Shown here piece by piece: positions 3,932 to 46,692 of a stretch of DNA of 64,000 nucleotides; position 1 is the stretch's first letter; every line of letters begins with the position of its first letter. This DNA is from a virus. The translations under genes and the position numbers were made by a program. The stretch covers positions 32,001 through 96,000 of IMG/VR virus record IMGVR_UViG_3300032308_002775; one strand, 5' to 3'. The notes below the pieces were generated by a model that had not been told where the DNA came from, made no database searches, and was given only the letters and a program-made list of their open reading frames with translations.

Positions 3932-4849
3932 ATGGCAGAAACCAAACAAAGCGCTTCGAACTGGACCAGCTATTTTCTCGGCGAGTCCACCAGCCCGGCC
4001 ACGCAGATGTTTAACAAGGCGCGGGAGGCTGTAACCGCTGCGGATACAGCCAAGTGGAATCAGCAGCACGGCCAGACCCTGCTCAACACGATGGCGCTCA
4101 CGGGCGGCGTCGGCATGGGCGGCCTGGCGCTCTACCACCTGCTCCGCGGCCTGAAGCCGACCGGCAAGAAGGAGCGGAAGTACCAAAACATTGCCGCGGG
4201 TTCGCCGGTCATGGCCAAGTCGCCGCTTGAGGCGCCGCAGGAGAAGGCGGCTGTTCTCGACCAAATCGTCAGCGGTGTCGGATCCGTGCCGGGCGCGATT
4301 GTTGACTCTTTCCCCAGGCTGTTCAAGTCGCTGGGTGAAGCTGGCGCCGCGCCCAAAGATCCCAACATGCTGCGCGGTGCGGTCGCCACGACGCTCGGCA
4401 CCGGCCTGGGCCTGGGCGCCCTGTACGGCGGCGGCAAGCTGATCAACTCGATCATGGCAAAGAAGCAGAAGGACGACGCGACCGACGAAGTCGAAGAGGC
4501 CCGCGCCCGGTATCACGCCATTCTCGCGGGCAAGGAAGCCGCCGCGCTCGACAAGCTGTATGCCCGTTATCAGGAAAAGCGCGCCGAGGGCTGGCTGGAC
4601 GGTTTGTTGGAAATTGGCACGGATTCGGCGCCCCGCGTGGCTTTGACGTCCATGCTGCTGGCCGGACTCGGCGCGGGCGGCATTGGCGCGAAGTACATGT
4701 ACGACCAGACGGCAGCGAAGACCCGCGGCGAAAACCTGGCCAAGGCCCAGGCATCGCGCGCGCGCATGAAGGGCCTGCCGACGATGTGGGTTGACCCGGA
4801 AGAACTTGTGAAGGTTAAGCAGCTGGCAGAACAAAGCAGCGATGAGTGA
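3932..4849 (+). CDS. putative internal head/ejection protein with repeated Gly-rich hydrophobic helices
   Basis: Three GxGxGG-type hydrophobic segments separated by EKAA/KEAA/EKRA motifs; no Cys. Confidence 0.6.
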   Translation: MAETKQSASNWTSYFLGESTSPATQMFNKAREAVTAADTAKWNQQHGQTLLNTMALTGGVGMGGLALYHLLRGLKPTGKKERKYQNIAAGSPVMAKSPLEAPQEKAAVLDQIVSGVGSVPGAIVDSFPRLFKSLGEAGAAPKDPNMLRGAVATTLGTGLGLGALYGGGKLINSIMAKKQKDDATDEVEEARARYHAILAGKEAAALDKLYARYQEKRAEGWLDGLLEIGTDSAPRVALTSMLLAGLGAGGIGAKYMYDQTAAKTRGENLAKAQASRARMKGLPTMWVDPEELVKVKQLAEQSSDE

Positions 4850-7800: not shown

Positions 7801-9261
7801 GTCTACGAGAAGTTTGTTAACCAGCTCAAGGGCGCTGGAATTAACACCGTGCGCGAAGGGACAAAGACGCACATCATGGCGGTGACCGACCGCGACATCG
7901 ATGAGCTGGCCGGGGCCCGCGAGGTCACCAACTCCGAGACAGTCGACTGGAAGGGGCGGCTCAAGCCGATCAAGGGCGGCCTGTTCGATGAAACGCTCAC
8001 CGGCGGCCACGGCGGCAACCGCTGGAGCAAGATCACGCTTCACGAACCGATGCCCAACCCGGTCATGGAGGAGCCAATCCGCCGGGTGCTCGGGCTTACC
8101 GAGAAAGAGTTCCGCGGAGTGCTCGCCGGGCAGGTGCAGCTGTTCGACAAGACCGGCCCGGAGGCCATCCAGGGCGCCCTGGGGCGGATCAACCTGCCCA
8201 AGGCGATCGAGCAGGCCAGGTTAGATATCAAATCGGGACGCAAGACTTTGCGCGACGCCGCCGTGCGGAAGCTGGGATACCTCAAGAACGCTGAATCGAC
8301 CGGCGTCCATCCCAAGGACTGGATGATGAGCAAGGTCGGCGTGCTCCCGCCGATTTTTCGGCCCGTCTCCACGATGGGCGCCAAAAAGTTACCGCTCGTG
8401 GCCGACGCGAATTACCTCTACAAGGAACTGCTCGACGCGAACGACACGCTCAAGGAAGCCTCCGGCGCCCTGAGCGAATACAGCGACGAACGGCTGGGCC
8501 TGTACGACGCCATGAAGGCCGTCTCCGGGTTGGGCGATCCGACGCAGCCCAAGAATCAGGAACGCCGTGTGAAGGGCTTTTTGCAGCACGTCTTCGGCAG
8601 TTCGCCCAAGTACGGCACCGTGCAGCGCAAGCTTCTCTCGACCACGGTCGACTTGGTGGGGCGGGCAGTTATTACGCCGAACCCGGACCTCGACATGGAC
8701 CAGGTCGCGCTTCCCGAGGACAAGGCCTGGGAGGTCTACAAGCCGTTCGTGGTGCGGGGCCTGGTGCGCCGCGGAATGCCCCGGATGAATGCGCTGGACG
8801 CCGTCGAAAACCGCAACAAGGCGGCGTACGACGAGCTGAACACGCAGATGTCGTCCCGGCCGATCGTCATTAACCGTGCGCCGGTGCTCCATCGATACGG
8901 TATGATGGCGTTTTATCCGAAGCTCACCAAGAACAAGGTTATGGAGGTTAACCCGGTCATTACCAAGGGTTTTGGCGCCGACTTTGACGGGGACGCGATG
9001 CAGTATCACGTTCCCAGCACCGAGGACGCCGCCAAGGAAGCCGTCGAAAAAATGCTTCCAAGCAAAAATCTCTTTTCGACGGCAAGCTTCAAGGCCCACT
9101 TTGTTCCGAACAGGGACTATCAGACCGGGGTTTACCTGGCTTCGAGCCGGGTCGACAAGAAACAGAAGCCGAGGGTATACAAGTCACGGCAGGACGCCAT
9201 GAACGCCTATCGCCGCGGGGAGATTGACGTCGACACCCCGGTGCATATCGTCGAGAGTTAA
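4846..9261 (+). CDS. phage multisubunit RNA polymerase, fused beta + N-terminal beta' (catalytic DFDGD)
   Basis: Beta motifs: PYLTDSGTFVNRGVE, TPESGKVG, RAVMASRMFTQALP, GKNYEDAVVISE, GDKLTGRYGDKGVV, PLGLISRVN, FMKLHH, GAKRVGMLD. Beta' motifs: ETVDWKGRLKPIKGGLF, VLPPIFRP, VDLVGRAVI, NRAPVLHR, GADFDGDAM. Alternative start ATG 4855. Confidence 0.95.
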   Translation: MSAMPDSILSGPPAPITPTPQPQAPLQTRSFGDIGALRTNIFDRALQSASSLEPIKNDLYTLQLANVAYTGPERFTKADQKKAVLTGNSLHRRLTGTWNLIDNTTGAPIATRQQTIAHVPYLTDSGTFVNRGVEYTLAHQMRLKAGVYTREKDNGELEAHVNVLPGKGRMHRYFLDPKTGVMNINIGQAKIPLMPLLKAMGAKDSDIRAAWGNEITAVNMEKGDAGTLDKLYQRLVYRQTPGIDAAAKQKAIADEFARMELDPDVTRRTLGKEYKNLTPEAILDITKKLIALNRKEADPDDRDAMAYQSIVGPEDLISERFTKDKQALRKLLWKATAKKNLDHVPTGVFNKAIQAALIGSGLGSSLEEINPAEIFDHQGRVTRMGEGGIGSLDAVPQESRSVQPSHLGFVDFLRTPESGKVGVDMRFARGAMKGTDGKIYTPVVNIQTGETEMKTPGELAETPLAFPGEEKTDMPMVAALVGGKMQYVPREEVQFSLPNMDSTFSALSNMVPLKSMMKGQRAVMASRMFTQALPLSGAEAPLVQSAVVDKDGVSHEDEMGEKLGAVKAQFHGQVVSAEPGMIVLRDREGKKHEIDLYNDMPFNRKTFWHQTPVVKPGDVIKPGQLLAHSNFTDPSGTAAMGKNLRVAYLPYQGKNYEDAVVISESAAKKLTSEHMYQHEAEWTENSHVGKKAFVALFPGEYDKKQLENFDDKGAIKKGTVVNYGDPLILQAKAKETTYGKVHRGRAGNFMNETLTWEHHSPGVVTDVEHTDKGVSVVVKSQAEMQVGDKLTGRYGDKGVVADIVPDHRMPQDKDGSPYEVLVSPLGLISRVNPAQVVEAALGKIAAKTGQPFKLKDFDSAQDLVEFAQNELGKHGLSDTEDVTDPETGRKIKSVLTGNRFFMKLHHTAESKGQGRAMSSYTAEGTPAKGGSEGAKRVGMLDLGALLSHGAGKVIRDAKMVRGQANPEYWSQFMAGYTPPLPKVPHVYEKFVNQLKGAGINTVREGTKTHIMAVTDRDIDELAGAREVTNSETVDWKGRLKPIKGGLFDETLTGGHGGNRWSKITLHEPMPNPVMEEPIRRVLGLTEKEFRGVLAGQVQLFDKTGPEAIQGALGRINLPKAIEQARLDIKSGRKTLRDAAVRKLGYLKNAESTGVHPKDWMMSKVGVLPPIFRPVSTMGAKKLPLVADANYLYKELLDANDTLKEASGALSEYSDERLGLYDAMKAVSGLGDPTQPKNQERRVKGFLQHVFGSSPKYGTVQRKLLSTTVDLVGRAVITPNPDLDMDQVALPEDKAWEVYKPFVVRGLVRRGMPRMNALDAVENRNKAAYDELNTQMSSRPIVINRAPVLHRYGMMAFYPKLTKNKVMEVNPVITKGFGADFDGDAMQYHVPSTEDAAKEAVEKMLPSKNLFSTASFKAHFVPNRDYQTGVYLASSRVDKKQKPRVYKSRQDAMNAYRRGEIDVDTPVHIVES

Positions 9262-10242: not shown

Positions 10243-12123
10243 ATGCTCAAGACGACGCTCGGTCAAATTCTCGTAAACGAGGCGCTGCCCGAGGACATGC
10301 GCAACTACGAGCGCGTCCTGACCAAAAAGGAAATGGGCAAGCTGGCCACGGAGCTGGCGCAGAAGTACCCGGACAAATACCGGGACGTCATGAAGCGCCT
10401 GCACGACGTGGGCCGCGACGCTGCGTACACCACGAACGGCCTGTCGTTTGGGCTGAAAGATATCAAACCGACGGTGGCCGCCCGCGACGTACAACTGCGG
10501 GTGCAGCGGCAGCTCCGCGGCATTCTGGCAAACCGCGACCTGGACGATAAGACCCGCTCGCTGGCCATTCTCAAGCTGGCCGCTGGCGCGCAGAAAGAGC
10601 TTGTCGAGCGCGTTTACGATGAGGCGCGCGGCAACGACAACCCGCTCGCGCATCAGGTAACCGGGTCTGCCGTCGGCAACAAGTTCAGCCTGAATTCGCT
10701 GATCGGCGCCGACATGCAGTATGTCGACCACAAGAACGACCCAATTCCGATTCCGGTGATGCGGAGTTACGGCCAGGGGCTTCGACCCGTGGAATATTTT
10801 GCGGGCGCCTTCGGCACCCGCAAGGGGTTGATGGACCTAAAAACGGCGACGGCCGACGCGGGCTTTTTCGGCAAACAGCTCGCCCAGATGACGCACCGGC
10901 TGCTCGTCACGGCCGACGATGACGACGATCAAGAGCGCAATGCCACTGCGCAAGACCGCGGCTTTCCGACCGACGTGGACGACGTCGACAACGAGGGCGC
11001 GCTTCTGGCGCGACCGGTGGGGCCGTACAAGCGCAACACCGTCCTGACGCCAAAGATTCTTAAAGACATCAAGGAGATGGGCATTCAGGACATCCTGGTG
11101 CGCAGCCCGCTCACCGGCGGCCCGGACGACGGCGGCGTCTACGCCAAAGACGTCGGCTACCGCGAGAAGGGCAAGCTGCCTCCAATCGGCGACTATGTCG
11201 GTATCGCCGCCGCCCAGGCCCTCTCCGAGCCGGTGACTCAGGCGCAGATCAGCTCGAAGCACTCCGGCGGCGTGGGCGGCGCGGCCTCAATCTCGGGCTT
11301 CAAGGCGATTAACGCGCTAGTCCAGGTCCCGAAAAAGTATCCCGGCGGCGCCGCGCATTCTCAGCTTGACGGATTCGTGCAGGAAATCCGCGAAGCGCCC
11401 CAGGGCGGCCATTACGTTCAAATCGGCGGCGAAGATCATTACGTGCCGGTCGACCAGGAGCTGACGGTCAAGAAGGGGCAAGAGGTCGAGGCGGGCGACT
11501 CGATCACCAATGGCATGCCCAATCCGGCCGAAGTCGTCCGGCACAAGGGCATCGGCGAGGGGCGCAGGTACTTTGTGCAGGCCATGCGCCAGGTTCTCCA
11601 GAACTCCGGCGTGTCGCCTCACCGCCGTAACATTGAACTGCTCTCGCGCGGGCTGGTCAACCACGTTCGCATGACCGACGAATACGGTGATTACAACCCC
11701 GACGACGTGGTGCCGTACTCGATGCTCGAGCGTGCTTGGCAGCCGCGTCAAGGAAGCGTGACGGGCGTGCCCAAAAGCCTGCAGGGGCATTACCTGGAGC
11801 GGCCCGTGCTCCACTACTCGGTCGGCACGAAGATCGGCAAGAATGTCGCCAGCACGCTTCAAAAGTACGGCATTAACAATGTCGAAGCGCACCGGGAACC
11901 GCCGCCCTTCCAGCCTGAAATGGTGCGCGGCATGTCGAACATCTCGAACGACCCAGACTGGATGACCCGAATGCTCGGTTCTTACCAGCAAAAGGGCCTG
12001 CTCAGCAGCGTGCACCGCGGTTCGACCAGCGACGCGGCTGGAAGCAGCTTCGTTCCCGCGCTGGCCCGCGGCGAAACGTTCGGCGTGACCGGCGCGACGA
12101 GCGGATGGCGCCCGCAAACGTGA
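10243..12123 (+). CDS. phage multisubunit RNA polymerase, C-terminal part of beta' (bridge helix, trigger loop)
   Basis: TTLGQILVN; GLSFGLKDI; bridge helix GLRPVEYFAGAFGTRKGLMDLKTATADAGFFGKQL; trigger loop GDYVGIAAAQALSEPVTQAQISSKHSGG; HRRNIELLSR. Confidence 0.93.
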   Translation: MLKTTLGQILVNEALPEDMRNYERVLTKKEMGKLATELAQKYPDKYRDVMKRLHDVGRDAAYTTNGLSFGLKDIKPTVAARDVQLRVQRQLRGILANRDLDDKTRSLAILKLAAGAQKELVERVYDEARGNDNPLAHQVTGSAVGNKFSLNSLIGADMQYVDHKNDPIPIPVMRSYGQGLRPVEYFAGAFGTRKGLMDLKTATADAGFFGKQLAQMTHRLLVTADDDDDQERNATAQDRGFPTDVDDVDNEGALLARPVGPYKRNTVLTPKILKDIKEMGIQDILVRSPLTGGPDDGGVYAKDVGYREKGKLPPIGDYVGIAAAQALSEPVTQAQISSKHSGGVGGAASISGFKAINALVQVPKKYPGGAAHSQLDGFVQEIREAPQGGHYVQIGGEDHYVPVDQELTVKKGQEVEAGDSITNGMPNPAEVVRHKGIGEGRRYFVQAMRQVLQNSGVSPHRRNIELLSRGLVNHVRMTDEYGDYNPDDVVPYSMLERAWQPRQGSVTGVPKSLQGHYLERPVLHYSVGTKIGKNVASTLQKYGINNVEAHREPPPFQPEMVRGMSNISNDPDWMTRMLGSYQQKGLLSSVHRGSTSDAAGSSFVPALARGETFGVTGATSGWRPQT

Positions 12124-28991: not shown

Positions 28992-31811
28992 ATGTCGAGC
29001 TACGTCAAACCACAAGTTCTTGTTTTTCAAGAATTCCGGATCGTCCCGACCGAGATCACTGAGCCGCTTCGCGCTCACGTCTCCGGCCCGCACGGCGTCC
29101 TGCATCGTTACAGCGACGTCGACGAAAAGCCGCTCTGCAGGCTGGGTCTCTATGACTACCTGAGCGACGTTTGCTACGCCTGGCCGGACCGGCTTCCCGG
29201 TTCGCGCGTCGACACGGGTTACACCAAGCTCTACATCGACGATGCGCTGCTCCTTTATTACGAGCACACGCTCGGCGAAACCGACACCGCGATCACCGCC
29301 GTCTCGGGCCGGACGAACTGGATCGAGGCCAGCGATCTGGCGTTCAAGAGCAACGGCGCGGCGTACCCGCGTAGCTCTGTTTTCGCTGATCGCGATGTGC
29401 AGCTCGGCGACGTTGTTCAGCTTCGCGCTGTCAGCCCCGACTCGGATTGCGAAGAGACGGTCCTTAACACCATTGTGACCGGCTTCGCGAGCGAGACCGT
29501 GGCGGCGGATGTCGGCGCAGCGTCGAACGACGACGACAACCAGGGAACCATCTCGGCCGACACCGACTGGGAAAAGATCGGCGGGCCGGACAACTGCGTC
29601 GACATCGATTCGGTTGACGGCACAGCCTACGACGGCCGCGTCCCGGGCGACGTGACCGAAGAGTACACCATCACCGTGGTCAAGAGCTCTGTCCCGGGCT
29701 GCGCTGCCGCCCGGCTGCGCGTCCGCTCGGCCAGCGGCAACGACGATCAGGACGAGGTGGTGCCGGAGGATTTCGGCACCCCGACGCCGATCGGCACCCG
29801 CGGGCTGACGGTGACGTTCGACTACGACCCCGATTCGGGTTGCTCGCTCTCGGCCGATGAAGCCGAAGTGGCTCCTGATGCGTTTGTCGTGGGTCAGCGG
29901 TGGCAGGTCACCGTGCAGCAGGCGTTCACCGAGGTTAACGCGACTTCGGGTGGCGACTACGTGGGCGACAAGAACGACATCTACGTCGTTGAGTGCACCA
30001 AGGGCGGCACGTGGGCCGAGCTTCCCGAGATCACCGTCCGTACGGTGAAGGGACTCGACTTCTCTGGCCCGACCGAGGTCACCGGCGCGACCACGTTCGT
30101 GAGCATTGGCTCTAAGGGCGTGGAGATCAAGTTCCACGGCGCCACGGAGTCCACGAGCGTCCCTGCGCTTCGCAAGGGCGACAAGTGGTACATCACGGTG
30201 CTTTCCAGCCAGGCTGGCTCGGTGCGCCGATTGATCCTCCGGGATGATATCCCGGTGGACATGGTCGACGCCGCCGACATGGATCTGCGCCTGTTCATTA
30301 AGGACAACATCCAGGTCTCGGAGAATCGGATCGGGTTTGCGCCCCAGACGAACTACGAGCAGGAGCCCACGCAGATCTGCGTGCATGAAGGCGTCATCGC
30401 TTACCACCCCGAGTGGACGAGCGGCGGCGTCGAGCAGCCGCTTGAAGTGCGCGCGGGCACGCTGTACGTCGAGTACCGCGAGTGGCTCACCGACCTCGCC
30501 GACGAGGTAAACGCGATTGGCGACGTGGCCGACCTTGACCAGATCAAGGGCCAGCTCCACCCCGATAACCCGCTGAAGTGGGGCGTTTACAAGGCGCTCT
30601 CCAACAGCAACGGGACCGTGGTGAAGTACACGGCAGTTGCCGAGCCGGAAGACCTCGACAGCTGGGTCCAGGTGCTCGAGCGGGTCAAGGGCCGGGACGA
30701 TCTTTACAACCTCGTCCCGCTGACCTTCGACCGTCGGGTGCAGAACCTGTACGCGGCCCAGATCGACGCCGAGTCCAGCGAAATCAACAACAACTGGAAG
30801 AGCGGCTTCTTCGCTCTGAAGGCTGTGACGAGCAAGATGATCGTCGGCGAAGGCGCCACGATCGCCGGTGTCTCGGGCAACACGATTGCCGACCCGGTCC
30901 TCGCGACCCTTTCGGACGATCCCAACGCCACCAACACGCAGTACACGCTGCTCCGGGTGCTTGAGGGGTCGGGCTACTTCATCACCAACAACGTCCAGCC
31001 GGGCGACCTCGTCCGGTATCTGTACACGACGGACGCGTTCGGTGAGGAGCAGTACGAGGAGTTCGTGGTGGATCGCGTGGTCTCCGAGAACTCGCTCGTG
31101 CTGTTCTCCGGCGCCGACGCTGCGGTCACCGTGGCGGCTCGCGTCGAGATTTACCACAACCTCAACCGCAACGAGATCGCCGACGATCTGGCCGAGCAGG
31201 CCGGATCGCTGTCGAATCGCCGGGTCTGCGCCGTGTGGCCTGATCAGGTGGGCGAGGCGGGCACGCTGATGCCGGGTTACTACCTGGCCGCGGCGCTGGC
31301 CGGTCTTGCTTCGGGCGTTGTCCCGCAGCAGGGTCTCACGAACGTCGAGGTCGCCGGTTTCGACGACTTCACGCGCAGCTACAAGTACTTCAACGAGACG
31401 CAGCTGAATCGGATGGCCGAGGCGGGAGTGTGGATTGTGACTGAAGATCGCGACGGTACGCCGCACTCGCGGCATGCGCTGACGACGGACAACCTCGACC
31501 TGAACCGTCGGGAAGAGATGATCCGCCGCAACGTGGACTCGATGTCGTACCTGTTCCTGCGTCGGTTGCGTCCGTACATCGGCCGCACCAATGCCACGCC
31601 GGGAATGGTCGACCTGCTCGCGAACGAAGTCACCGAGCTGATCGACTTCTTCAAGTCGAATGGCGTGACCGCGGAACTCGGCTCGCAGCTCATCGACGGC
31701 ACGATTCGGATCCTCCGCATTCACCCGCTGTTGCGCGATCGGATCGAGATTGTCCTCGATCTGGTGGTCCCGGCACCGCTCAACAACATCGAACTCCACC
31801 TTGTTGTCTGA
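28992..31811 (+). CDS. contractile tail sheath protein (939 aa)
   Basis: N-terminal YVKPQVLVFQE; C-terminal YLAAALAGLASG...QQGLTN...FNETQLNRMAEAGVWIV...HALTTD...REEMIRRNVD...YIGRTN...VPAPLNNIELHL. Confidence 0.88.
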   Translation: MSSYVKPQVLVFQEFRIVPTEITEPLRAHVSGPHGVLHRYSDVDEKPLCRLGLYDYLSDVCYAWPDRLPGSRVDTGYTKLYIDDALLLYYEHTLGETDTAITAVSGRTNWIEASDLAFKSNGAAYPRSSVFADRDVQLGDVVQLRAVSPDSDCEETVLNTIVTGFASETVAADVGAASNDDDNQGTISADTDWEKIGGPDNCVDIDSVDGTAYDGRVPGDVTEEYTITVVKSSVPGCAAARLRVRSASGNDDQDEVVPEDFGTPTPIGTRGLTVTFDYDPDSGCSLSADEAEVAPDAFVVGQRWQVTVQQAFTEVNATSGGDYVGDKNDIYVVECTKGGTWAELPEITVRTVKGLDFSGPTEVTGATTFVSIGSKGVEIKFHGATESTSVPALRKGDKWYITVLSSQAGSVRRLILRDDIPVDMVDAADMDLRLFIKDNIQVSENRIGFAPQTNYEQEPTQICVHEGVIAYHPEWTSGGVEQPLEVRAGTLYVEYREWLTDLADEVNAIGDVADLDQIKGQLHPDNPLKWGVYKALSNSNGTVVKYTAVAEPEDLDSWVQVLERVKGRDDLYNLVPLTFDRRVQNLYAAQIDAESSEINNNWKSGFFALKAVTSKMIVGEGATIAGVSGNTIADPVLATLSDDPNATNTQYTLLRVLEGSGYFITNNVQPGDLVRYLYTTDAFGEEQYEEFVVDRVVSENSLVLFSGADAAVTVAARVEIYHNLNRNEIADDLAEQAGSLSNRRVCAVWPDQVGEAGTLMPGYYLAAALAGLASGVVPQQGLTNVEVAGFDDFTRSYKYFNETQLNRMAEAGVWIVTEDRDGTPHSRHALTTDNLDLNRREEMIRRNVDSMSYLFLRRLRPYIGRTNATPGMVDLLANEVTELIDFFKSNGVTAELGSQLIDGTIRILRIHPLLRDRIEIVLDLVVPAPLNNIELHLVV

Positions 31812-36743: not shown

Positions 36744-39700
36744 ATGCCCGGTTTTTCTTCCGACAATCCGTTTCAGTCAGGGCCTTTCCGCACGCCCTAC
36801 TACGGCCCCGGCCAGGGCCCGGCGCTGATGCAGGACCCTGCAGCGGCGATGATCATGATGTTCGGAATGCCGTTGCTCCAGGGCACCATGGGGTCGGACA
36901 AGTTTCTGCCGCATTTCACGCCAAACCAGGCCCTGATGGACCAGTTCATGGCGTCTCAGTATCAGCGGTCGAACTTGGCGGCCAGCCTAGCCGCGTCCCG
37001 GATGGGCGAGGAGGCTGTCAGCGACCGCGTGCTGGGAATCGCCTCCATGCTGACCGGCACGCCAGCCAGCCAGCTAAACCGGGAGCAGGCGAACAATTTA
37101 GCGTCGATGATCAATCATCCGATCGCAAAAATGATGCTCGGGCAGCTCATGGGACCCGAGAACATGGAGGCGCTCATGTTCGGCCGACGGGGCGACCCGG
37201 CGGCACTGGCCTCAGCCGTCGGCCGCGTCGGTTTCTTCCGCCGCGACGCGCTTGGCAGCGAACGGATGAACGCGCAGTCCTTGGAAGACTTCTCCAAGGC
37301 TATTCACGCCAATCTCTATGGCGAAGGCGCCAACGTCGACGACATGCGCGGCTTCATGGCCGGGCAGGCCGGGCAAATTTTCGAGAACTTGTTCCAGCGG
37401 GGCATGTTGCCGCAGAGCATCGGCGCGCTATCGGCCGCCGAGCGCGTGCGCCTCTTGGGCGACGAGGCAAATCGCGACCCCGTTACCATGGACCGTTTGG
37501 CCGACGAGTTCGGGCGCCGCGAATTGATGAAGTCCGATCGGACATTCGACGTTGAGGTCGACGGTAAAAAGCTGAGCCGTCGGTTTAACGAGGTTACCGA
37601 AGAGGAGCAAAAGCTCATTCTCGAGCGCGAACGCCCTGGTTTCCGGTCGCGACTGGACGACACGTTTGAGCGCATCGACGAGTTCCGCAAGGAAGATTTC
37701 GCCCGGGGCAAATCGCCCGCCGAAATGGAGACGGCGGCCCGCGACATTGAAAAACTGGCGGGCTACGACGTTACGGCGCGCAATGTAGACGCGTCGAAAA
37801 CCTCGGGCAAGATCAAAGAGTTCGCCGGTGCCGTCGCCGCCGTCCGTGAGATTTTCGGCGACAACGGCAACCCCAACGCCCCCATGCCCGCCCTTTTGGC
37901 CGCGCTGGAGCAACTCACCCAGGGCGCGCTGCCCCAAATGAGCGCCAAGGGCGTCGAGGGCACAATGCGCCAGATGCGGCTGGCGGCCCGGGAGGCGGGC
38001 ATCGGCATGGAACAGCTCATGGGGATGTCGGCCCAAATCGGGGCTTACGGCGACACGCTGGGGATTGCCAGGCCGGTCTCCATGCAGAACACGCTGAATA
38101 CCGCGCTGCTCACCAAGGCCATGCGCGAAGCCGGTTCGTTCTCGAATCCCCGTTTTGGGCAGACAGACCAGGCCACGGCGGCGCAGGACGCGGGGATGGC
38201 GATGCAGCGCGGCGACGCGTCCGGCGTGGGCATGACGCTTGCGGCAATGCGCCGAGCAGTTGAAACAAACCCAGAGCTGTACGCCGGTACTGAGGCGGAA
38301 GCGCTCGTCAACGCTTACAAGAACAACCAAACGACCTACACGTTCGACGGCCGCACGGTCAACCTGGCGAACACGGCGGGCAAGGGCGGAGCGCCAGCTC
38401 TGGCCGAGATCTTCACGCGATCGAACGGTTCGATGGCGACGCTGAACATGTACTCGCTCGATCAAATGACGCAGAAGTACATGAACGCCGGTTACACGTA
38501 CGAACTCCAGTCTGCCGAGCTGCAGCGCGACGTCACGAACGGCGTGCTCGGCGGAATGGTGATGGATCGGCTCGACCTGAACAGCGTGCGCGATACGGCG
38601 CGCGCGTTGGGCGTATCCGAAAAAGACGCCGAAGACGCCCGGTTCGCGTTTGGAAAAACCGTTTCGGATCAGCTTGCCGGAGTGATCATCAAAGAAACAG
38701 GCGGGATGGAACCGGAAGAGCGGCAAAAGTACCTGCGCGACAAGCTGCCCGAGCTGATGAAGAACGTCTTCATGGAAGGCGGCGTCGCCGATCCGGCCGA
38801 GGCAGAGCGGCGGGCCGAGGCATTCATGCCGCTGCTTTTCGGCGCCAACGAAAAAGAACAACTCGACGTGCTGGGCCGGATGATTTCGGCCGTCGATTTA
38901 ACAGTGCAGAATGCAACGGGAAAAACACTGACCGCGCTCGATCAGCGGTCTTCTCCCGAGGTCATCGCCAACTACCGGCGCGAACAGGTTGTCAACAAGA
39001 ACCGCGCGGAGCGGATGGGCCAAATGCAGCGCGGTCGCGAGTCGAGCCTGCTGCAGCGCATTGGCGAAGAGGCAGAGCGAGTTGGCCAGGGCGGTACGTT
39101 TACCATTCAGGACAGCATTGAACGCATCACGAACATCCTAGACGTCGCCGGGCTGCGGGACGCATACGCGCCAGAACTCGCGCAAGGATTCGGCCGCGCG
39201 CTGGAGATAGAGCGCGGCCTCGTGCTGCAAGACGCCGACGTGCTCGCGCTAGCGGATGCCGCTGAAAAGGGCGGCGCCGGTGGCGCGGACGCGCTTAAAA
39301 AGCTCAAGTTTCTGGCGGGCGTCGATGAAAAAATGCAGGTTGTCGCCGACGACGCGAAGGACATTGATCCCAACAAACAGATTACCCGCACAGAACTGCG
39401 CGAGCGCGCGCGTTCGCAGGTCGGCACCGCGGCTGGTTTTACCGAAGAGGCGCGGCGCGAGAACAAAAAGAAACTCGAGCGCCTGAACGACTATTACCAG
39501 GCGATGGTGAGCGGCGATAAGGCAGACCTGGTTACCGCTGCCTCGGACAACCTCGCGGAAGACGCCGCGCTGAAACGACGACTCTCGGAAGAGGATGCAG
39601 AAAAACTGCGCGGACGTTTTGAGAAGGCCGCGCTCGGCGACAAGGACGAACTCAACGCGCTCAGGGAAACGCTTAGCGAAGACGAGTTCAAAATGCTCGA

Positions 39701-40250
39701 GGGCCTGCAGAGCGCGAGCACGCTGGCCAAGCACGGCATCGTGCTAAGCAGCGACTTCATGAACCAGACGATTAACGTCAAATCCGAAGAAGTCGCGCGC
39801 AAGCAAATGGAAGCCGCCGCCGAGGCCGCGCGCAAGGAACGCGAAAACCTCGAGACGGGCATCGACGCAGCAGCCGAGGAGCGCGGCACGCCCCGTCCCG
39901 CTGGTGCCGGTGCAGCAGCCGCGGCAGGCGACAAACCGGCACGCCCACGCGGTGTCGGCGCAGAAACGACGCGGACCGAATCGATGTCGGTAGAGGCGTC
40001 CAAAGTCACCGTGAACATGGCCCGCGAGGCGGCCAGCGGTCAAACAGCCGCGGCCGAGAGTCGCGGCGTCAAAGCGGCGCCAGCAACCGGCGGCGCGGAA
40101 GCTCAAAGCAACGAATTGACCATCAACGGGACAATTGCACTGCGCAACCTGTACGAGGGAATCGTCAGCGTCACCGGCGAGCGGCCAATCGATACCCCTG
40201 ACGGTCCGTCCGTCTTCCCGAGCCGCGGCTCGGGAATGGTTATGGGCTAA
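36744..40250 (+). CDS. tape measure protein (1168 aa)
   Basis: Long, helical, Ala/Gly/Met/Glu-rich; no Cys or Trp; canonical position. Confidence 0.75.
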   Translation: MPGFSSDNPFQSGPFRTPYYGPGQGPALMQDPAAAMIMMFGMPLLQGTMGSDKFLPHFTPNQALMDQFMASQYQRSNLAASLAASRMGEEAVSDRVLGIASMLTGTPASQLNREQANNLASMINHPIAKMMLGQLMGPENMEALMFGRRGDPAALASAVGRVGFFRRDALGSERMNAQSLEDFSKAIHANLYGEGANVDDMRGFMAGQAGQIFENLFQRGMLPQSIGALSAAERVRLLGDEANRDPVTMDRLADEFGRRELMKSDRTFDVEVDGKKLSRRFNEVTEEEQKLILERERPGFRSRLDDTFERIDEFRKEDFARGKSPAEMETAARDIEKLAGYDVTARNVDASKTSGKIKEFAGAVAAVREIFGDNGNPNAPMPALLAALEQLTQGALPQMSAKGVEGTMRQMRLAAREAGIGMEQLMGMSAQIGAYGDTLGIARPVSMQNTLNTALLTKAMREAGSFSNPRFGQTDQATAAQDAGMAMQRGDASGVGMTLAAMRRAVETNPELYAGTEAEALVNAYKNNQTTYTFDGRTVNLANTAGKGGAPALAEIFTRSNGSMATLNMYSLDQMTQKYMNAGYTYELQSAELQRDVTNGVLGGMVMDRLDLNSVRDTARALGVSEKDAEDARFAFGKTVSDQLAGVIIKETGGMEPEERQKYLRDKLPELMKNVFMEGGVADPAEAERRAEAFMPLLFGANEKEQLDVLGRMISAVDLTVQNATGKTLTALDQRSSPEVIANYRREQVVNKNRAERMGQMQRGRESSLLQRIGEEAERVGQGGTFTIQDSIERITNILDVAGLRDAYAPELAQGFGRALEIERGLVLQDADVLALADAAEKGGAGGADALKKLKFLAGVDEKMQVVADDAKDIDPNKQITRTELRERARSQVGTAAGFTEEARRENKKKLERLNDYYQAMVSGDKADLVTAASDNLAEDAALKRRLSEEDAEKLRGRFEKAALGDKDELNALRETLSEDEFKMLEGLQSASTLAKHGIVLSSDFMNQTINVKSEEVARKQMEAAAEAARKERENLETGIDAAAEERGTPRPAGAGAAAAAGDKPARPRGVGAETTRTESMSVEASKVTVNMAREAASGQTAAAESRGVKAAPATGGAEAQSNELTINGTIALRNLYEGIVSVTGERPIDTPDGPSVFPSRGSGMVMG

Positions 40251-40775: not shown

Positions 40776-41582
40776 ATGATTAACCACGCCCGCACTCTTC
40801 TGTTGAACGTCGCCAGCGACAACGGCGCACCGGCGGACTTTGGCGAAGAGTACATTCCGACGAGCTTCGTTCCGGTCACGCTGCCGTCGTACATCGTTAC
40901 GCCGCGCCGCATTCTGTTCGGCGCCGCGCCGGATCGGTACTTCCTGAACTTTCGCGGTCGCGAATTGATGCACAACCTGCACCAGACCGAGTTGCAGGAG
41001 TATGTGACTGCGCTCGATCCGCGCGTCACCTACTGGCCCGAGCTTACCGCTCCGTTCTTCACCCCGGCCTCAAAGATATCTAATGCGCACATTGGCGGTC
41101 CGAAGCTGGGGCGTCTTTTCTTTTCCGGCGCGCCTGCTGCGGACAGCGGCCGCGGCCGGAGTCTGCGGGAGTATCTCGTAGAAACGGCCGCGGACACCAT
41201 CACCGTCACTCTCCGCGCCGCTCCTGGCCAGGCCGCCGAAAGCGTCACGAGCCCGTTTGACACTGAAAGCGGCGTGACGCAGGCGGTGCTCATGCCCAGA
41301 AGCCAGCTTCGCGTCCAAATCGGCAATCCGGTCAACGGAGAGCGCTGGCTGGTGACCACGCTGGCCCGCCCGACTCCAGCAATCACCACGCTGTTGCCGG
41401 TGCTGGAGCTGATGGGCGAGCCGGTGGCACTTGAGCTGTTCGGCCCCGGCAACCCGCCCGAGCCCTACAGCACGTTCAAGAACTTGTGGTTTGACCATCC
41501 TAACGCCGTTTATCGGCTGGGCGGCCTGACGCTTGCCATGATCTACCGGACAAACGAAGTCAGGAGCACGCCCAATGGCTGA
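40776..41582 (+). CDS. hypothetical baseplate protein (268 aa)
   Basis: Tightly packed ORF in the baseplate module. Confidence 0.6.
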   Translation: MINHARTLLLNVASDNGAPADFGEEYIPTSFVPVTLPSYIVTPRRILFGAAPDRYFLNFRGRELMHNLHQTELQEYVTALDPRVTYWPELTAPFFTPASKISNAHIGGPKLGRLFFSGAPAADSGRGRSLREYLVETAADTITVTLRAAPGQAAESVTSPFDTESGVTQAVLMPRSQLRVQIGNPVNGERWLVTTLARPTPAITTLLPVLELMGEPVALELFGPGNPPEPYSTFKNLWFDHPNAVYRLGGLTLAMIYRTNEVRSTPNG

Positions 41583-43230
41583 TGCCGCTCCCTATGTCGT
41601 TACGAGCTTCGCGCTCGAGGCAGAATTCAAACCAGAGTCCGGCGGCGTGATCATTTTCAAGGACGTGATCTCGATCGCGGCGACTTTCGGGTTGAACTCG
41701 ATCCCCGTCGCGCAGCTCGTCGTGGCGACCGGCAAAAACGCGCAGACGGACGAGCTGGCGTCCATCCACAAGAACAAGGGTCGGTTGAAGCACGGCACTG
41801 AAGTAACTGTTCGGCTTACGGTCACAAACCACGACGGCCAGCTCGACAAGATCGAACAAGGCACGTTTGTCATCTTTCACGGCAGGTTTGCAGGCATCGG
41901 CTATCAGCGCAGCTACGACGCGGCCAGCTATACGATTCACTTGGTTCACTGGCTCGACTACCTGAACCACGGCTCAATGGTCAACGGGAACTGGTTTCCA
42001 GGCGCGCCGTACGACCTTGCGCAGAACGCGCTCTACACGGCGCTCGGCCCAGCGCAGGAAGGAAACGCCGGGCTGCGGGGCGATCCAACGCCGCAAATCG
42101 ACGCTAACCGCAAGATCGTGAACTGGGCGAACATCAGGAAAGACCTGTGGGGCGAGGTCATCAAACCGATCTTCAAAAAGATCGCAGCCTGGCCGCTTCC
42201 TCACTATCAGGACATGGCGCAGGGCGGAGAAGAAAACAACAAGCTGGTCCTGGAAGCTCTCGAAAAGATGCCCGGCGACGGCGCCAAGTACTACTCCAAT
42301 CTGCGGCTTGATATGGAGGGGCTGCAATCGGAAAACGTGGCGGAATCCATTCGCCTGGCGCTTGGCAAAGACGCCATGGATTCATTCGCTTACACCACGT
42401 TCTGGAACAAGCTGGTCGGCGAGTACGCGCCGCAGTTCTATTTCGCGATTTCGCCCTGCACCGAGTACGCCCTGCCAATTCCTTTCTTTGCCGGATTGAG
42501 CACGCCCTGGAAAACAATCAAGTCAGACGAATACAACTACGCCAATTTCAACGCCAGCATGATGCTGAACCTGGAGTCGGTTGACATCTTTTATCCGGTG
42601 CAAAGCTCCACGGGCTACCAGATTGGCCCCAGCGCATCGAACGCTCCGGTCGTATCTTTTCGGACGCCGATGGGCTGGTATCCGCCCCAGGACCAACAGA
42701 ACCGGCGCGGGTACAAGCTGCTCAAAGAACCGCCGACCTGGATGACGAACCTCTTTCCTGGCCCGGCGTTCGCTGCCCGATCAACCGGCATTGGCGCCGA
42801 AGGCAAAGACGTCTGCGTTCCCGATCGCGGCGACAAAAACCCGCCGAACAAGTTCTTCAACGGCTCAGGCGCGAACTACGAAGCGAAAAAAAGCGGGGCG
42901 CTAACCCGATTCGCTGAGCACTGGTACAAGACCGAGGTGCTGTACCAACGGCACGGCGAGCTGTCCGGCAAGCTGCGTTTCGATATTGCCCCGGGCTCGA
43001 TCATTGCCATCGAAACTCCTGAATACGATCTCGACAAGAAAGACAAGCTACACGCTACGGTGACGCAGGTCTCTTACGCGATTAACGCAGAGACGGCGCA
43101 GGCAGGAACAAGTTTCACGCTGGCGCACATTCGCACTGAAGATGAAAACGAGGACCAATTTTTGACAGCTAATAAGCCGCCGCTTTACCGCGTAGCGTGG
43201 CGCGGCGCGCCCTTGGCGGAGAAGAAGTGA
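41575..43230 (+). CDS. putative baseplate hub protein (gp27/gpD-like)
   Basis: SIAATFGLNSIPVAQL...IFHGRFAGIGY...GELSGKLRFDIAPGSII...VTQVSYAI pattern of hub proteins. Confidence 0.55.
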   Translation: MADAAPYVVTSFALEAEFKPESGGVIIFKDVISIAATFGLNSIPVAQLVVATGKNAQTDELASIHKNKGRLKHGTEVTVRLTVTNHDGQLDKIEQGTFVIFHGRFAGIGYQRSYDAASYTIHLVHWLDYLNHGSMVNGNWFPGAPYDLAQNALYTALGPAQEGNAGLRGDPTPQIDANRKIVNWANIRKDLWGEVIKPIFKKIAAWPLPHYQDMAQGGEENNKLVLEALEKMPGDGAKYYSNLRLDMEGLQSENVAESIRLALGKDAMDSFAYTTFWNKLVGEYAPQFYFAISPCTEYALPIPFFAGLSTPWKTIKSDEYNYANFNASMMLNLESVDIFYPVQSSTGYQIGPSASNAPVVSFRTPMGWYPPQDQQNRRGYKLLKEPPTWMTNLFPGPAFAARSTGIGAEGKDVCVPDRGDKNPPNKFFNGSGANYEAKKSGALTRFAEHWYKTEVLYQRHGELSGKLRFDIAPGSIIAIETPEYDLDKKDKLHATVTQVSYAINAETAQAGTSFTLAHIRTEDENEDQFLTANKPPLYRVAWRGAPLAEKK

Positions 43231-43231
43231 C

Positions 43232-44044
43232 ATGCCTGACATGAAGAAGCCCGGTATGCCGTCCATTCTTGACGACGTTCCTATGCCGTTCTCCGGCCCA
43301 AAAAAGCCGCAGGGCGTGGGCGACGATTTCGAATCGACGTTCTCGCAGTGGCAGCAGCGACGCACGCCGGAAACAAATACGCAGATTCTCCGGACGGTGC
43401 AGCCAGTAATCGATACGGCGCTGACCAGTTATGCGGGCGGCAACAATAGTCCCACGATTCGGTCCCGGGCGAAGTTGATGGCGCTGAAAGCCTTGGAAAC
43501 GTACGACCCGCAAAAGGGAAACGTCCGGACGCACCTCCTCAGCCAGCTTCAGAGTTTGCGCCGGACCGCGGCGCAGGCGCAAAACATCATCTCGATCCCC
43601 GAGCAGGTCGGACTAGACTACCAGCGGCTCGCCGAGAGCGAGAACGAATTGCGCGACCGACTTGGCCGCGACCCCACGGACGACGAACTGGCCGACCACA
43701 CTTTGCTCTCGCCCCGGCGGATCCGAAAGATTCGCTCGTTTGCGCAGCCTGTCGCCGAGGGCTCCACAGTAGTCGAAAGCGGCGACGAGATGAATGATGG
43801 CGGCGTGGCTAGCACGATTCCCGGCAGCATCCGCGCGGCCGAGGCGTGGATGAATTTCGTGTACGACGACCTCAGCTCGACCGACAAGTTAATCATGGAT
43901 TTGACGCTAGGGCGCAACGGGCGGCGGCGCACCAGTACGCAGGAAATTGCGCGCCGGTTGAATGTCACACCCGGCGCCGTGAGTCAGCGCGCCGCCAAAA
44001 TTCAGGCCATGATCGACAAGCGTTACACGCAGGGAGGTTTCTGA
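43232..44044 (+). CDS. sigma70-family RNA polymerase sigma factor (270 aa)
   Basis: Region 2 ALKALETYDPQKGNVRTHL; region 3 IISIPEQV...ELRDRLGRDPTDDELAD; region 4 LSSTDKLIMDLTLG...STQEIARRLNVTPGAVSQRAAKI. Confidence 0.85.
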   Translation: MPDMKKPGMPSILDDVPMPFSGPKKPQGVGDDFESTFSQWQQRRTPETNTQILRTVQPVIDTALTSYAGGNNSPTIRSRAKLMALKALETYDPQKGNVRTHLLSQLQSLRRTAAQAQNIISIPEQVGLDYQRLAESENELRDRLGRDPTDDELADHTLLSPRRIRKIRSFAQPVAEGSTVVESGDEMNDGGVASTIPGSIRAAEAWMNFVYDDLSSTDKLIMDLTLGRNGRRRTSTQEIARRLNVTPGAVSQRAAKIQAMIDKRYTQGGF

Positions 44045-44562
44045 TGGCGCACGGAAAATCGCTCGGCAAAGTAGACGACAAGTTCAAGGACCGCGTCGCC
44101 GACCTGGAAGAGTACGCCCGAGACGCGGCAGAGCAGTTCAAAGACTGGTCCCGCCCGCGGCCGTGGGCGGTGCCCAAAGTCATGGCGCAGCGCGACCTGC
44201 TCGACGTTCCCGGTCTTCATGAACCTGCCTGGGATCGCAACAAGCTCAACGAGCAGTACTCGGAGGAGGCGCTCAAGGGCCCTGGAGTATTGGGCGGCAC
44301 CGTGGGAGATCTGATCGCCATCAAGTGGCAGGTGGATTTTATGGCCACCGAGGAGCGCGCATTTCGACTGCGGCATGCGAGCCATGCCCGCTGCGCCGCG
44401 TTGCTCCACGGGCGGCTGGACGGTCACGGCAAGCAGGCTTCTGGCATTTTTTCGTTCTTAAAGGACGGCGTGCAGGAATACATTGATTTGGGCAAGGCGC
44501 ATGGCGCAAATGACGGTTTCCAGGGCGACGTGAATCCGGGCGGCGCGGCGGGCCTCGCGTAA
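44044..44562 (+). CDS. hypothetical protein (172 aa)
   Basis: GGAGG RBS; TGATG coupling to the sigma gene. Confidence 0.65.
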   Translation: MAHGKSLGKVDDKFKDRVADLEEYARDAAEQFKDWSRPRPWAVPKVMAQRDLLDVPGLHEPAWDRNKLNEQYSEEALKGPGVLGGTVGDLIAIKWQVDFMATEERAFRLRHASHARCAALLHGRLDGHGKQASGIFSFLKDGVQEYIDLGKAHGANDGFQGDVNPGGAAGLA

Positions 44563-44572: not shown

Positions 44573-45040
44573 ATGAGTCTCGCAGAATACGCAAATCGCA
44601 AGTACGACTACCTTGCCTTTCAGGGCGTCAAGGCGCTCGGAGAAGCGCGGCTGGGGCTGGCGCTTTATGCCGAAGACACCAGCGGCCAGATCTGTGTGGG
44701 CATTCAAAAGCTCGCCCAGCGGTGGGCGCTGGAGTTCCTGACCGAGCTCGGCTCAATGCCCGGTCTGCCCACTCGCGGCAGCGACTTCATGACGCAGGTT
44801 CGACAGGGTTCGCTGCGCAACGAGGTTGACGTGGTGGCGGCTTTCGGCGCCGCGAGCCTTTACGTCGAGCGCAATCTTCGCAACGAAGAATACGAGAACA
44901 TGCCCAGCGATGAGCAGTTCGATGAGGCCGAGTTAACCAGTGTCCAGTTCTTGCCGGGCTACATGAACTTGCGTGTTATGATTTACAGCCGCGCCGGTGA
45001 GTCGCGTGCGGCCATTCTCCCGATTGAAACTCTTGTTTAG
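44573..45040 (+). CDS. gp25/gpW-like baseplate wedge (sheath initiator) protein
   Basis: GIQKLAQRWALEFLTELGSMPGLPTRGSDF; directly before the baseplate J-like gene. Confidence 0.7.
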   Translation: MSLAEYANRKYDYLAFQGVKALGEARLGLALYAEDTSGQICVGIQKLAQRWALEFLTELGSMPGLPTRGSDFMTQVRQGSLRNEVDVVAAFGAASLYVERNLRNEEYENMPSDEQFDEAELTSVQFLPGYMNLRVMIYSRAGESRAAILPIETLV

Positions 45041-45048: not shown

Positions 45049-46692
45049 ATGGCCCTTGAAATCGGCAGCCTGACGGAACTTGATCGCGCCCAGATTGACG
45101 CGATGTTTGCGACGTTCACGCAGCTCATGCAGGAACGGCACCCCGAGGTAGAGCTAACCCGCGGCGTGTTTCACGACCTGGTCATCTACTTTAACGCCGT
45201 GCTTAACGGGGCTGTTCGGGAGAACGTCGAGCGCGTGCTGGCGAGTAATAGCCTGCTGGGCATTTCGACCAATCCGGCGCTGGCCGACGAAGCGCTGGTC
45301 GACAAGGTCTTGTCGAACTACAACATGGCCCGCGACTTGGGTTCCCGCGCTGTCGGGGAGGGCACGTTGATTCTGAACTTGCCGAATCAAACGACGATCT
45401 CCGACGCTGTTGTCTTTATTGGCGGCGGCGTTGAATTTCAGCCGACGGCCACTTTTACGCTCCTACCGCCGGACAGTGTGCCTCTCACCGAGACCGAGCG
45501 CGTAATGATCGAGGTCGGCGACGGCACCTATGCCGCGAACATCTCGCTCCGGGCGGTAAACGTCGGCCTGGCCGGAAACATCCGCCGCGGCACCAAGCTT
45601 ATTCCAGATAACATCGTGAACAACACGGCTGACGCGTTTGCGGCTGCCGACTTCGTTAACGGCGCCGACGCTCCGACAAACGCCGAGTACCTTTCGAAAC
45701 TGTCGGCCGGTCTTGCGTCCAAAGCCATCGGCGGGCGACAGAACTACATCGCGCAGATCAAGAATCAGGCGGCGTTCGCCAACATCCCCCACCTGTCGAT
45801 TCTGGGGTGCGGCGATCCCGAACAGCAGCGCGATCAGCACAGCCTGTTCCCGATCAGCGGCGGCGGCAAGGTCGACATCTACTGCCAGACGCACGCGGAC
45901 GCGCAGGAACGAGAACATCTGCTCGAGGCGGTGTACGTTGGTCCGGGCGCCGCAGGCACCATCTGGCAGGTCGCACTCAATCGCGACCTGGCGCCGGGGT
46001 TCTACGAGGTTAGCCGGATTGCTAAGCCGCGCGACACGACCAGCGTGGGTTATTCCGTCGTGCAGGACCTGCGCTTCTGGGACACCTCAGAGGTAGATTT
46101 CGCGCCCGATATCGTCAGTGCCGAAGAGGCCGCGTACACGCGCTACCAGACGGCGATTATCCGGTTCGAGGACACGGACACCAACCCGGGAACGCTTGTT
46201 CCGCAATCCAGCACAGCGCTGTATTCGGTGACAACCGTGGGCCTGCCACTGATCGCAGCCATCCAGGATTACCTGGCGGCTCGTGACGTCCGCAGCCGCC
46301 TGGCCGACGTGCTCGCCCGGGCGGCGGTCCCCTGCTTCACAAAGATATCTTTCGAGATTCGCCAGGCCGCGAACGCCGCCGATCTTGACCCGGCGCCCAT
46401 CAAAGCAGCGATCGCCGCGGCCATTCGCAAAATTGGCTTCACCGGGCAGCTGCACTCCTCGGTGATCAGCGCGGCGGTGCATCCGTTCCTGCCCGGCAAC
46501 GCCGCCGTGAGCGCAATTGACATGTTCGGCCGCATTCGCCGTCCGGACGGAACGACGCAGTACCTGCGAGACAACATCCTGCTGCAAGTTCCGGACGACC
46601 CGAACCGGCAGGTAACGGGGCGCACAACGGTGTTTCTGGTGGGAGAGGACGACATCTCGATCTCCTTTGTAGCCGCGGGTTTTACGAACTGA
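45049..46692 (+). CDS. baseplate J/gp6-like wedge protein
   Basis: AVGEGTL...GVEFQPT...RAVNVGLAGNI...FVNGADAPTNAEY...GGKVDIY. Confidence 0.75.
   Translation: MALEIGSLTELDRAQIDAMFATFTQLMQERHPEVELTRGVFHDLVIYFNAVLNGAVRENVERVLASNSLLGISTNPALADEALVDKVLSNYNMARDLGSRAVGEGTLILNLPNQTTISDAVVFIGGGVEFQPTATFTLLPPDSVPLTETERVMIEVGDGTYAANISLRAVNVGLAGNIRRGTKLIPDNIVNNTADAFAAADFVNGADAPTNAEYLSKLSAGLASKAIGGRQNYIAQIKNQAAFANIPHLSILGCGDPEQQRDQHSLFPISGGGKVDIYCQTHADAQEREHLLEAVYVGPGAAGTIWQVALNRDLAPGFYEVSRIAKPRDTTSVGYSVVQDLRFWDTSEVDFAPDIVSAEEAAYTRYQTAIIRFEDTDTNPGTLVPQSSTALYSVTTVGLPLIAAIQDYLAARDVRSRLADVLARAAVPCFTKISFEIRQAANAADLDPAPIKAAIAAAIRKIGFTGQLHSSVISAAVHPFLPGNAAVSAIDMFGRIRRPDGTTQYLRDNILLQVPDDPNRQVTGRTTVFLVGEDDISISFVAAGFTN

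Follow-up and report, generated by a model that had tools for sequence, protein, structure and literature searches.

A cysteine-free sigma-70-family factor encoded among the baseplate genes of an RNA polymerase-encoding phage: a candidate virion-packaged partner of the phage polymerase

Several phages switch promoter use with factors that belong or are related to the sigma-70 family, among them T4 gp55, SPO1 gp28 and gp34, and phiEco32 gp36. These factors act on the host core enzyme in phages without an RNA polymerase (RNAP) of their own, their genes lie outside the baseplate module, and they are not considered components of the virion. According to reviews from 2021 and 2026, jumbo phages that encode an RNAP do so without sigma homologues, whereas those that encode a sigma factor have no RNAP and use that of the host (PMC7824862; PMC13282480). 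Gp68 of the nonvirion RNAP of phiKZ and gp226 of that of AR9 are promoter-specificity subunits of phage multisubunit RNAPs (PMC13282480). Here we describe a gene at positions 43232 to 44044 on the plus strand of a 64,000-nucleotide stretch of DNA from an uncultured phage of about 200 kb (in the following, the window, i.e., positions 32001 to 96000 of an IMG/VR phage record that is 153.7 kb long, is rated as 75% complete, and has a G+C content of 60%). Its ATG-initiated, cysteine-free product of 270 amino acids is a genuine sigma factor of a phage-specific lineage of the sigma-70 family, it is encoded within the baseplate gene block, and the same phage carries a two-chain RNAP of bacterial type. 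Like phiKZ gp68 and AR9 gp226, it would serve as a phage-encoded promoter-recognition factor for a phage-encoded multisubunit RNAP; unlike it, those two proteins show no sequence similarity to sigma-70 and are part of a nonvirion enzyme. Moreover, phiKZ and AR9 possess two RNAP sets in four to five chains, whereas here a single two-chain RNAP is accompanied by a Pfam-recognised sigma-70-family factor.

For proteins that are made late and carried into the next host, three described systems offer comparison. The virion RNAPs of N4 and phiKZ resemble the enzyme proposed here in being late-made polymerases that are packaged and injected for the early genes, but that of N4 is a single-subunit, T7-like domain within a giant protein and that of phiKZ has no known sigma-like subunit. 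For enzymes of the T4 Alt family, linkage of the gene to those of the baseplate is conserved; the proteins are synthesized late, carried in the head, and injected (PMC5512222). The likeness to Alt thus comprises a baseplate-linked gene, late synthesis, packaging, injection with the DNA and action on transcription; the differences are that Alt is an enzyme modifying the host RNAP, resides in the head, and is unrelated to sigma in sequence and fold. Among cultured phages, full-length homologues annotated as such were found only in Salmonella phage Arash (gp10) and the Vibrio phages D69, D181, and D148, with 25% identity; for Arash gp10 this value extends over residues 29 to 170 (E = 7e-10). Arash (OQ632216) has a homologous cysteine-free sigma gene ahead of gp25-like and J-like genes and an RNAP of the same type (gp206 and gp216), and by homology, position, co-occurrence with this RNAP, and absence of cysteine the protein studied here belongs to the lineage of Arash gp10. 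The latter differs in having only 234 residues and no N-terminal extension, and between it and the large gp8 upstream, a "cell wall hydrolase," lies the small gene gp9. In both Arash and D69, the genes after sigma are, in this order, a small one, a gp25-like one, and a J-like one. Arash gp10 is annotated as "RNA polymerase sigma factor RpoS," and the corresponding paper lists the protein without discussing a phage holoenzyme (PMC10585845). A paper on the "moraphage" lineage (PMC12619734) was rejected as an account of the present clade because those phages are reported to lack an RNAP.

The sigma identity of the 43232-44044 product was derived from family models, profile alignment, and structure prediction. 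In Pfam, residues 132 to 181 matched Sigma70_r3 (PF04539) with 38.4 bits at a cut-off of 25.3, which is the sole match to this family in the whole record, whereas Sigma70_r4 (PF04545) stayed at 17.3 bits, under its cut-off of 24.1, and Sigma70_r2 (PF04542) gave no match to the protein. The PF04545 cut-off is exceeded by the relatives P0122 (24.7 bits) and P0213 (25.4 bits) and likewise in precomputed matches of homologues. A profile made from 29 family members aligned residues 82 to 257 to positions 413 to 593 of sigma70, i.e., from late region 2.2/2.3 to region 4.2 (SigA and RpoD entries of the PDB, E = 4.5e-9). The AlphaFold2 model, with a predicted local distance difference test (pLDDT) of 71, features a five-helix bundle (residues 33 to 116), a set of three helices (residues 130 to 169), and one of four helices (residues 200 to 266), and Foldseek aligned it with whole sigma chains at a probability of 1.0 over 225 to 288 columns. 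The resulting layout consists of an N-terminal tail (residues 1 to 32), sigma2 (33 to 116), sigma3 (130 to 169), an acidic disordered linker (174 to 199), and a sigma4 helix-turn-helix domain (200 to 266). A preliminary description of this DNA had recognised sigma70 regions 2, 3, and 4 and proposed a search with hidden Markov models; in that search region 3 alone surpassed its cut-off, while sigma2 and sigma4 were recovered by the profile, the model, and Foldseek, so that the three domains typical of the family are all present. The protein was assigned to PHROG 351.

Within the family, the protein stands apart from the cellular factors. Its closest solved relatives in the profile search against the PDB are bacterial primary sigmas, and its top NCBIfam match is TIGR02393 (RpoD_Cterm) with 33.6 bits (cut-off 354); no curated cellular subfamily is reached. 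Region 1.1 is absent, and region 2.3 reads THLLSQLQ compared with TYATWWIRQ in sigma70, so that the aromatic residues of primary sigmas are missing. With a score below the RpoD models and without the tyrosine and tryptophan residues of region 2.3, the protein falls outside the primary (RpoD/SigA-type, group 1) factors. In the profile alignment, both the core-binding stretch of region 2.2 and the recognition helix of region 4.2 are strongly diverged from bacterial sigmas. Binding to a core enzyme and promoter-specific initiation would be expected of a member of the family, and the alignable clamp-helix region of the phage RNAP is an indirect hint of them.

The sigma gene is locked into the tail-baseplate transcription unit. 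Upstream lies the gene for a hub-spike protein (41575 to 43230, 551 residues), whose TGA stop codon at 43228 to 43230 is separated from the sigma ATG by a single base; downstream, the last base of the sigma stop codon (TGA, 44042 to 44044) is also the first base of the ATG that opens the next reading frame (44044 to 44562, 172 residues), giving TGATG. This frame is followed by the genes of a probable gp25/sheath-initiator-like protein (44573 to 45040, 155 residues) and a Baseplate J/gp6-like wedge protein (45049 to 46692, 547 residues). All of them are located on the plus strand, as are nearly all genes of the window and the genome, and from position 32463 to the end of the window the intergenic gaps between plus-strand genes are below 40 nucleotides. 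The tail block holding the sigma gene starts with the tail sheath gene (28992 to 31811, plus strand, 939 residues; PHROG 2839 and 279, weak match to Pfam Phage_sheath_1), and the RNAP genes end at position 12123, 31.1 kb upstream of the sigma gene. The layout given in the preliminary description, with a start 1 nucleotide after the hub stop, a TGATG overlap at the end, a distance of 31 kb from the RNAP genes, and a position between hub-like and gp25/J-like genes, is thus confirmed by the coordinates, by the fold of the hub, by a Baseplate_J match above cut-off, and, for the gp25-like protein, by weak leads.

The same description had named synteny in related phages as a check and a non-conserved position as a point that would speak against it. 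The order hub, sigma, partner of about 150 to 170 residues, gp25-like, and J-like protein was present in 44 of 44 loci fetched, three distant ones with 38 to 47% identity included. The junction upstream of sigma measures −11 to +13 nucleotides in the relatives (+35 in one case) and that downstream −1 to +15 nucleotides. Median identity was 69% for sigma compared with 35 to 60% for its neighbours in the block, and sigma ranked top in 39 of the 44 loci. Judged from these comparisons, the position of sigma in the baseplate block is old and fixed. The lineage is widespread in metagenomes, with 404 close homologues and 498 clusters at 50% identity (E < 1e-30).

The candidate partner enzyme is encoded by two plus-strand genes. 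Chain 1 (4846 to 9261, 1,471 residues) is a fusion of beta with the N-terminal part of beta' and matches Pfam Rpb2_6 (172 bits) and Rpb1_2 (84 bits); chain 2 (10243 to 12123, 626 residues) represents the C-terminal part of beta' and matches Rpb1_5 (84 bits). Chain 1 aligns to residues 142 to 539 of B. subtilis beta', which includes the clamp-helix region, the docking site of sigma2. Chain 1 is the only RNAP beta copy of genome G000, which likewise contains a single sigma gene, and five complete relatives of 204 to 205 kb have one beta gene each. The best cultured-phage matches of chain 2 were Arash and the Vibrio phages D69, D181, and D148; since these same four phages carry both the sigma homologue and the closest RNAP, sigma and this type of RNAP have been inherited together, even where identity is as low as 25%.

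Two further features of the polymerase sequences were noted. In the clamp helices of beta' (window positions 8370 to 8520), the arginines of the aligned B. subtilis chain, LYRRVINRNNRLKRL, are replaced by LYKELLDANDTLKEA in the phage protein, and region 2.2 of sigma (window positions 43460 to 43500) reads IRSRAKLMALKA, to which B. subtilis SigA aligns from GLMKAVEKF onward; in bacterial sigmas, region 2.2 has the sequence IQEGNIGLMKA. These differences may be a complementary charge swap between region 2.2 and the clamp helices that would make the pair private. Because the aligned stretch is short and Arash has other residues there, the swap is treated as a lead. In addition, about 9 of 120 RNAP homologues are longer by about 345 residues because of an insert located after residue 417 of the 4846-9261 product. 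In five of them (P0274, P0279, P0296, P0333, and P0377) the insert starts with Cys, ends with GN followed by Ser, and interrupts a conserved RTPE|SGK site; almost all of the 11 to 16 cysteines of these proteins lie within it. Pfam gave no match for the insert, which looks like an intein; if it is one, the spliced RNAP would again be almost free of cysteine.

Absence of cysteine, listed in the preliminary description for the single protein, turned out to be a trait of the whole sigma family. With about 1.4% cysteine in the phage proteome, a protein of 270 residues has a chance of about 2% of containing none; among 120 close homologues (32,417 residues), all 120 contain none. The same applies to 143 of 150 representatives of the 50%-identity clusters and to the Arash gp10 and D69 homologues, and several of the few cysteines in the remaining representatives fall outside the sigma part. 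Cysteine is also lacking in both RNAP chains, in a 1,168-residue protein together with all its orthologues, in a 268-residue protein, and in a few others; the equivalents of the 1,168-residue protein in Arash (gp4) and D69 (0004) are cysteine-free as well. It is present in the hub, the 172-residue partner, and the J-like protein, and proteins of the tail-fibre region possess 28 to 44 cysteines. Cysteine avoidance as a trait of all virion proteins was rejected on account of the hub, J-like, and fibre-region proteins. The cysteine-free subset plausibly comprises proteins that must survive outside the cell and would pass through the tail.

Sigma and RNAP have a second trait in common, located at their N termini. 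Residues 1 to 32 of sigma include 7 prolines and 4 methionines, in line with the Pro/Met-rich extension of about 30 residues reported earlier, and are predicted to be disordered (pLDDT below 50 for residues 1 to 19). The motif GMPSIL..P.PFS of this tail is kept in the clade of approximately 200-kb phages, and the tail is absent from most representatives of the 50%-identity clusters and from Arash and D69; being clade-specific, it provides no loading signal conserved throughout the sigma family. At its N terminus, the beta-beta' chain of this phage reads MPDSIL, and other homologues have MPSILPP or NSILGP there, compared with GMPSILGD in sigma. SIL occurs within the first 30 residues in 40 of 120 RNAP homologues, while 49 of the 120 have LPPL instead, again in a proline-rich tail. 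Only 4 of the 172 proteins of this phage contain SIL in their first 30 residues, sigma and the RNAP chain being two of them. The positions concerned are 4846 to 4900 (RNAP) and 43256 to 43300 (sigma) of the window, and the RNAP homologues compared are P0271 to P0390. As a lead taken from these sequences, the SIL peptide is a candidate for a shared targeting, docking, or packaging signal of sigma and RNAP and, if real, suggests that both follow one shared route rather than separate ones.

The presence of such a sigma factor in particles has been reported for Arash. After sucrose-gradient purification, the particles were analyzed by liquid chromatography-tandem mass spectrometry, and gp10 was detected with 100% sequence coverage, 24 unique peptides, and 467 spectra, while the RNAP protein gp206 yielded the most spectra of any particle protein (PMC10585845). 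For comparison, the portal protein was represented by 32 and the major capsid protein by 30 unique peptides, and obvious nonstructural enzymes by 2 to 5, with 2 each for the ligase, the primase, and the helicases (PMC10585845). We consider it somewhat better than an even chance (probability roughly 0.55) that the sigma factor described here is the cognate promoter-specificity subunit of the phage's own two-chain bacterial-type RNAP and that it is made late, packaged, and injected. Being translated within the long tail-baseplate unit, it would be synthesized late and in an amount tied to that of the low-copy baseplate proteins; it would then be packed into the virion along with the polymerase and enter the next host with the DNA, where the holoenzyme would start transcription at phage-specific promoters. 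The same single sigma and polymerase would probably serve the rest of the cycle. For the present phage we infer late timing, packaging, partnership with the phage core, and injection. The earlier proposal of a virion component that joins an injected RNAP is rendered plausible by the mass spectrometry of Arash gp10 and by the family-wide avoidance of cysteine, and for this phage it stands as a deduction from relatives.

Several observations weigh against this interpretation. The Arash particle list comprises 116 proteins, among them ribonucleotide reductases, ligase, and primase, and its authors allow for carry-over (PMC10585845). Purified particles of the Twort-like phage fRuSau02 likewise contained a phage sigma together with its anti-sigma and the host RNAP, and these were judged to be co-isolated contaminants (PMC5618024). 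Detection of the sigma lineage in virions is limited to Arash, a distant relative, the present clade being known from sequence, and the avoidance of cysteine could have another cause. No promoter class for sigma emerged from a consensus scan of the whole record, from gaps read by eye, or from k-mer enrichment in 45 gaps, and, on sequence alone, an internal promoter may lie within the hub gene.

Doubtful, but the strongest of the competing explanations, is the idea that sigma is an initiation factor of the phage RNAP, general or late, which acts only in the producing cell. It might exert positive feedback on its own operon, host RNAP or weak internal promoters would serve the early genes or else the initial production of RNAP and sigma, and the signal in Arash particles would be carry-over. 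Sigma factors do stick to DNA and polymerase and turn up as contaminants of virion proteomes (PMC5618024), the Arash list contains many enzymes, and the nearly one-way orientation of the genes means that position says little about timing. On the other hand, sigma and RNAP are both encoded in blocks of virion genes without a second copy, which creates a bootstrap problem if they are not delivered; the unique peptides of gp10 resemble in number those of the portal and major capsid proteins and not those of contaminants; and the avoidance of cysteine common to the whole sigma family and the RNAP would be left without explanation. Considerably less credible is that sigma redirects the host core to phage promoters in the manner of T4 gp55 or SPO1 gp28/gp34 while the phage RNAP uses another factor, an explanation to which we assign the lowest probability of all. 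The pattern set out in the reviews, in which phage sigmas go with host RNAP and phage multisubunit RNAPs lack sigma homologues (PMC7824862; PMC13282480), and the kinship with bacterial primary sigmas would favour it. Its opponents are the co-inheritance of sigma with this RNAP type, the absence of any other recognisable specificity factor in Pfam searches of the record, the divergence of regions 2.2 and 2.3 combined with the replaced clamp-helix arginines, which would fit private pairing, and the NCBIfam result, which places the protein in no cellular subfamily.

The preliminary description had further suggested that sigma may be delivered separately through the tail, with the core in the head and sigma in the tail. 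Worked out in detail, such a scheme would have the N-terminal tail of sigma or the 172-residue partner attach sigma to the hub or hold it inside the tube; sigma would be fired ahead of the DNA and joined by the separately delivered, head-packaged core. We regard it as very unlikely, ranking it just ahead of action on the host core. Cargo genes of type VI secretion systems (T6SS) and extracellular contractile injection systems (eCIS) often adjoin vgrG, and here, too, a nonstructural gene follows directly on a VgrG-type hub-spike gene (1-nucleotide gap) and is itself followed everywhere by a small conserved partner gene, as would be expected for an adaptor. A sigma composed, according to the model, of three small helical domains with flexible linkers and a disordered N-terminal tail would also suit such cargo. 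The likeness is positional only, however, in that neither a loading domain nor an adaptor family nor a physical link can be recognised, and a family-wide loading signal or adaptor was not found: the N-terminal tail is clade-specific, lacking in Arash, D69, and most cluster representatives. The SIL motif that sigma has in common with the RNAP chain suggests one common route, and the hub and the 172-residue partner are not cysteine-free. Finally, T4 Alt is equally baseplate-linked yet packaged in the head (PMC5512222), which makes gene position no guide to location in the particle; separate delivery, proposed from gene position, is unsupported. By this precedent and the shared N-terminal motif, the compartment that holds the polymerase is a more likely place for sigma than the tail lumen. 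Tail-borne cargo, if true, would amount to split delivery of a holoenzyme, with the phage tail acting as an effector injector.

The assignments of the neighbouring proteins were obtained as follows. Pfam, PHROGs, and NCBIfam gave no family match for the hub, the 172-, 155-, 268-, 1,168-, and 970-residue proteins, and profile searches against the PDB yielded none for the hub and weak matches at best for the other neighbours. The AlphaFold2 model of the hub, computed from 18 orthologues (pLDDT 77, predicted template modeling score 0.79), was matched by Foldseek to hub/spike chains of eCIS, Photorhabdus virulence cassettes, phi812, Mu, and T6SS VgrG with E values of 3e-12 to 1e-9; on the strength of this model, the 551-residue protein is a hub-spike protein of the VgrG/gp27/Mu gp44 type. 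The 547-residue protein scored 27.2 bits with Pfam Baseplate_J (PF04865; cut-off 21.1), belongs to PHROG 6 (baseplate wedge), and matches Arash gp13 and D69 gp14. For the 155-residue protein, the leads are weak but concordant, namely, a PDB profile match to the phi812 wedge subunit (E = 0.036), Atlas neighbours in PF10934, PF04965, and PF07409 at 0.87 to 0.89, and matches to D69 gp13 and Arash gp12; it is probably gp25/sheath-initiator-like. A database-scale search with the hub and the J-like protein gave no match in cultured phages, and Arash gp8 and gp11 showed no detectable similarity to the hub and the 172-residue partner, respectively.

The partner, which has no assigned function, follows sigma in every locus (150 to 170 residues in the relatives), its start usually overlapping or nearly so. 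It gave no match in Pfam, PHROG, NCBIfam, or the PDB, no usable one in the Atlas, and no adaptor family. His111 and Cys117 are nearly invariant and are located within an arginine-rich helix; possible roles of the protein are those of an adaptor, an anti-sigma, and a spike-tip component. Further upstream, the cysteine-free 1,168-residue protein (36744 to 40250, plus strand) has full-length relatives of 1,136 to 1,678 residues with 30 to 49% identity and a conserved N-terminal block (orthologues in L006 to L049) and may be a tape measure or ejection protein. The cysteine-free 268-residue protein encoded directly upstream of the hub (40776 to 41582, plus strand) has no assigned function.

Signals at the DNA level were few. 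A scan for sigma70-type promoters on the plus strand between 32 and 51 kb found none, in keeping with the integration of sigma into the baseplate unit. In the k-mer analysis only the palindrome AGATATCT stood out. Eight copies of the AT-rich palindrome WAGATATCTW, against an expectation of 0.02, are present in the window, at positions 14895, 16307, 25977, 26994, 27675, 41073, 46342, and 51964; two copies lie within the genes of the 268-residue and J-like proteins, none adjoins the sigma gene, and a connection with sigma was not apparent. The sigma coding sequence itself contains, on the plus strand (43828 to 43852), a G+C-rich hairpin of 9 bp with a T-rich run behind it; since terminator-like sites number 34 in the 19 kb scanned, where 23 would be expected, it is probably due to chance.

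A search for long forms among the close homologues of sigma found no fusions. The long N termini of P0184 and P0150, considered as possibly hub-derived, were ruled out as such. P0184 (L055:58-1614, 518 residues), a distant member of the family, combines a 2H-SAK ("Swiss Army Knife") phosphoesterase domain (PF22547, 46 bits) and DUF5661 with a sigma part of this family (residues 262 to 512); it is known from a single 1.9-kb contig with about 2x coverage and needs confirmation. The frame downstream of this fusion (L055:1624-1902) is a homologue of the 172-residue partner (hhalign E = 8e-5). Domains of the 2H phosphoesterase type occur among the injected "polyvalent" proteins of phages (PMC5512222), and the fusion counts in favour of the packaging and injection of sigma.

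The lineage described here breaks the division drawn in the reviews, for it combines a bacterial-type core with a factor that truly belongs to the sigma-70 family; neither contains cysteine, and the genes of both lie among those for particle proteins. Its cultured relative Arash makes the question of packaging directly testable. Should packaging and injection of the pair be borne out, it would represent the first bacterial-type holoenzyme carried by a virion and would constitute a compact, two-chain, zinc-free, and self-contained transcription system, of interest both for the evolution of recognition between RNAP and sigma and as an orthogonal expression tool.

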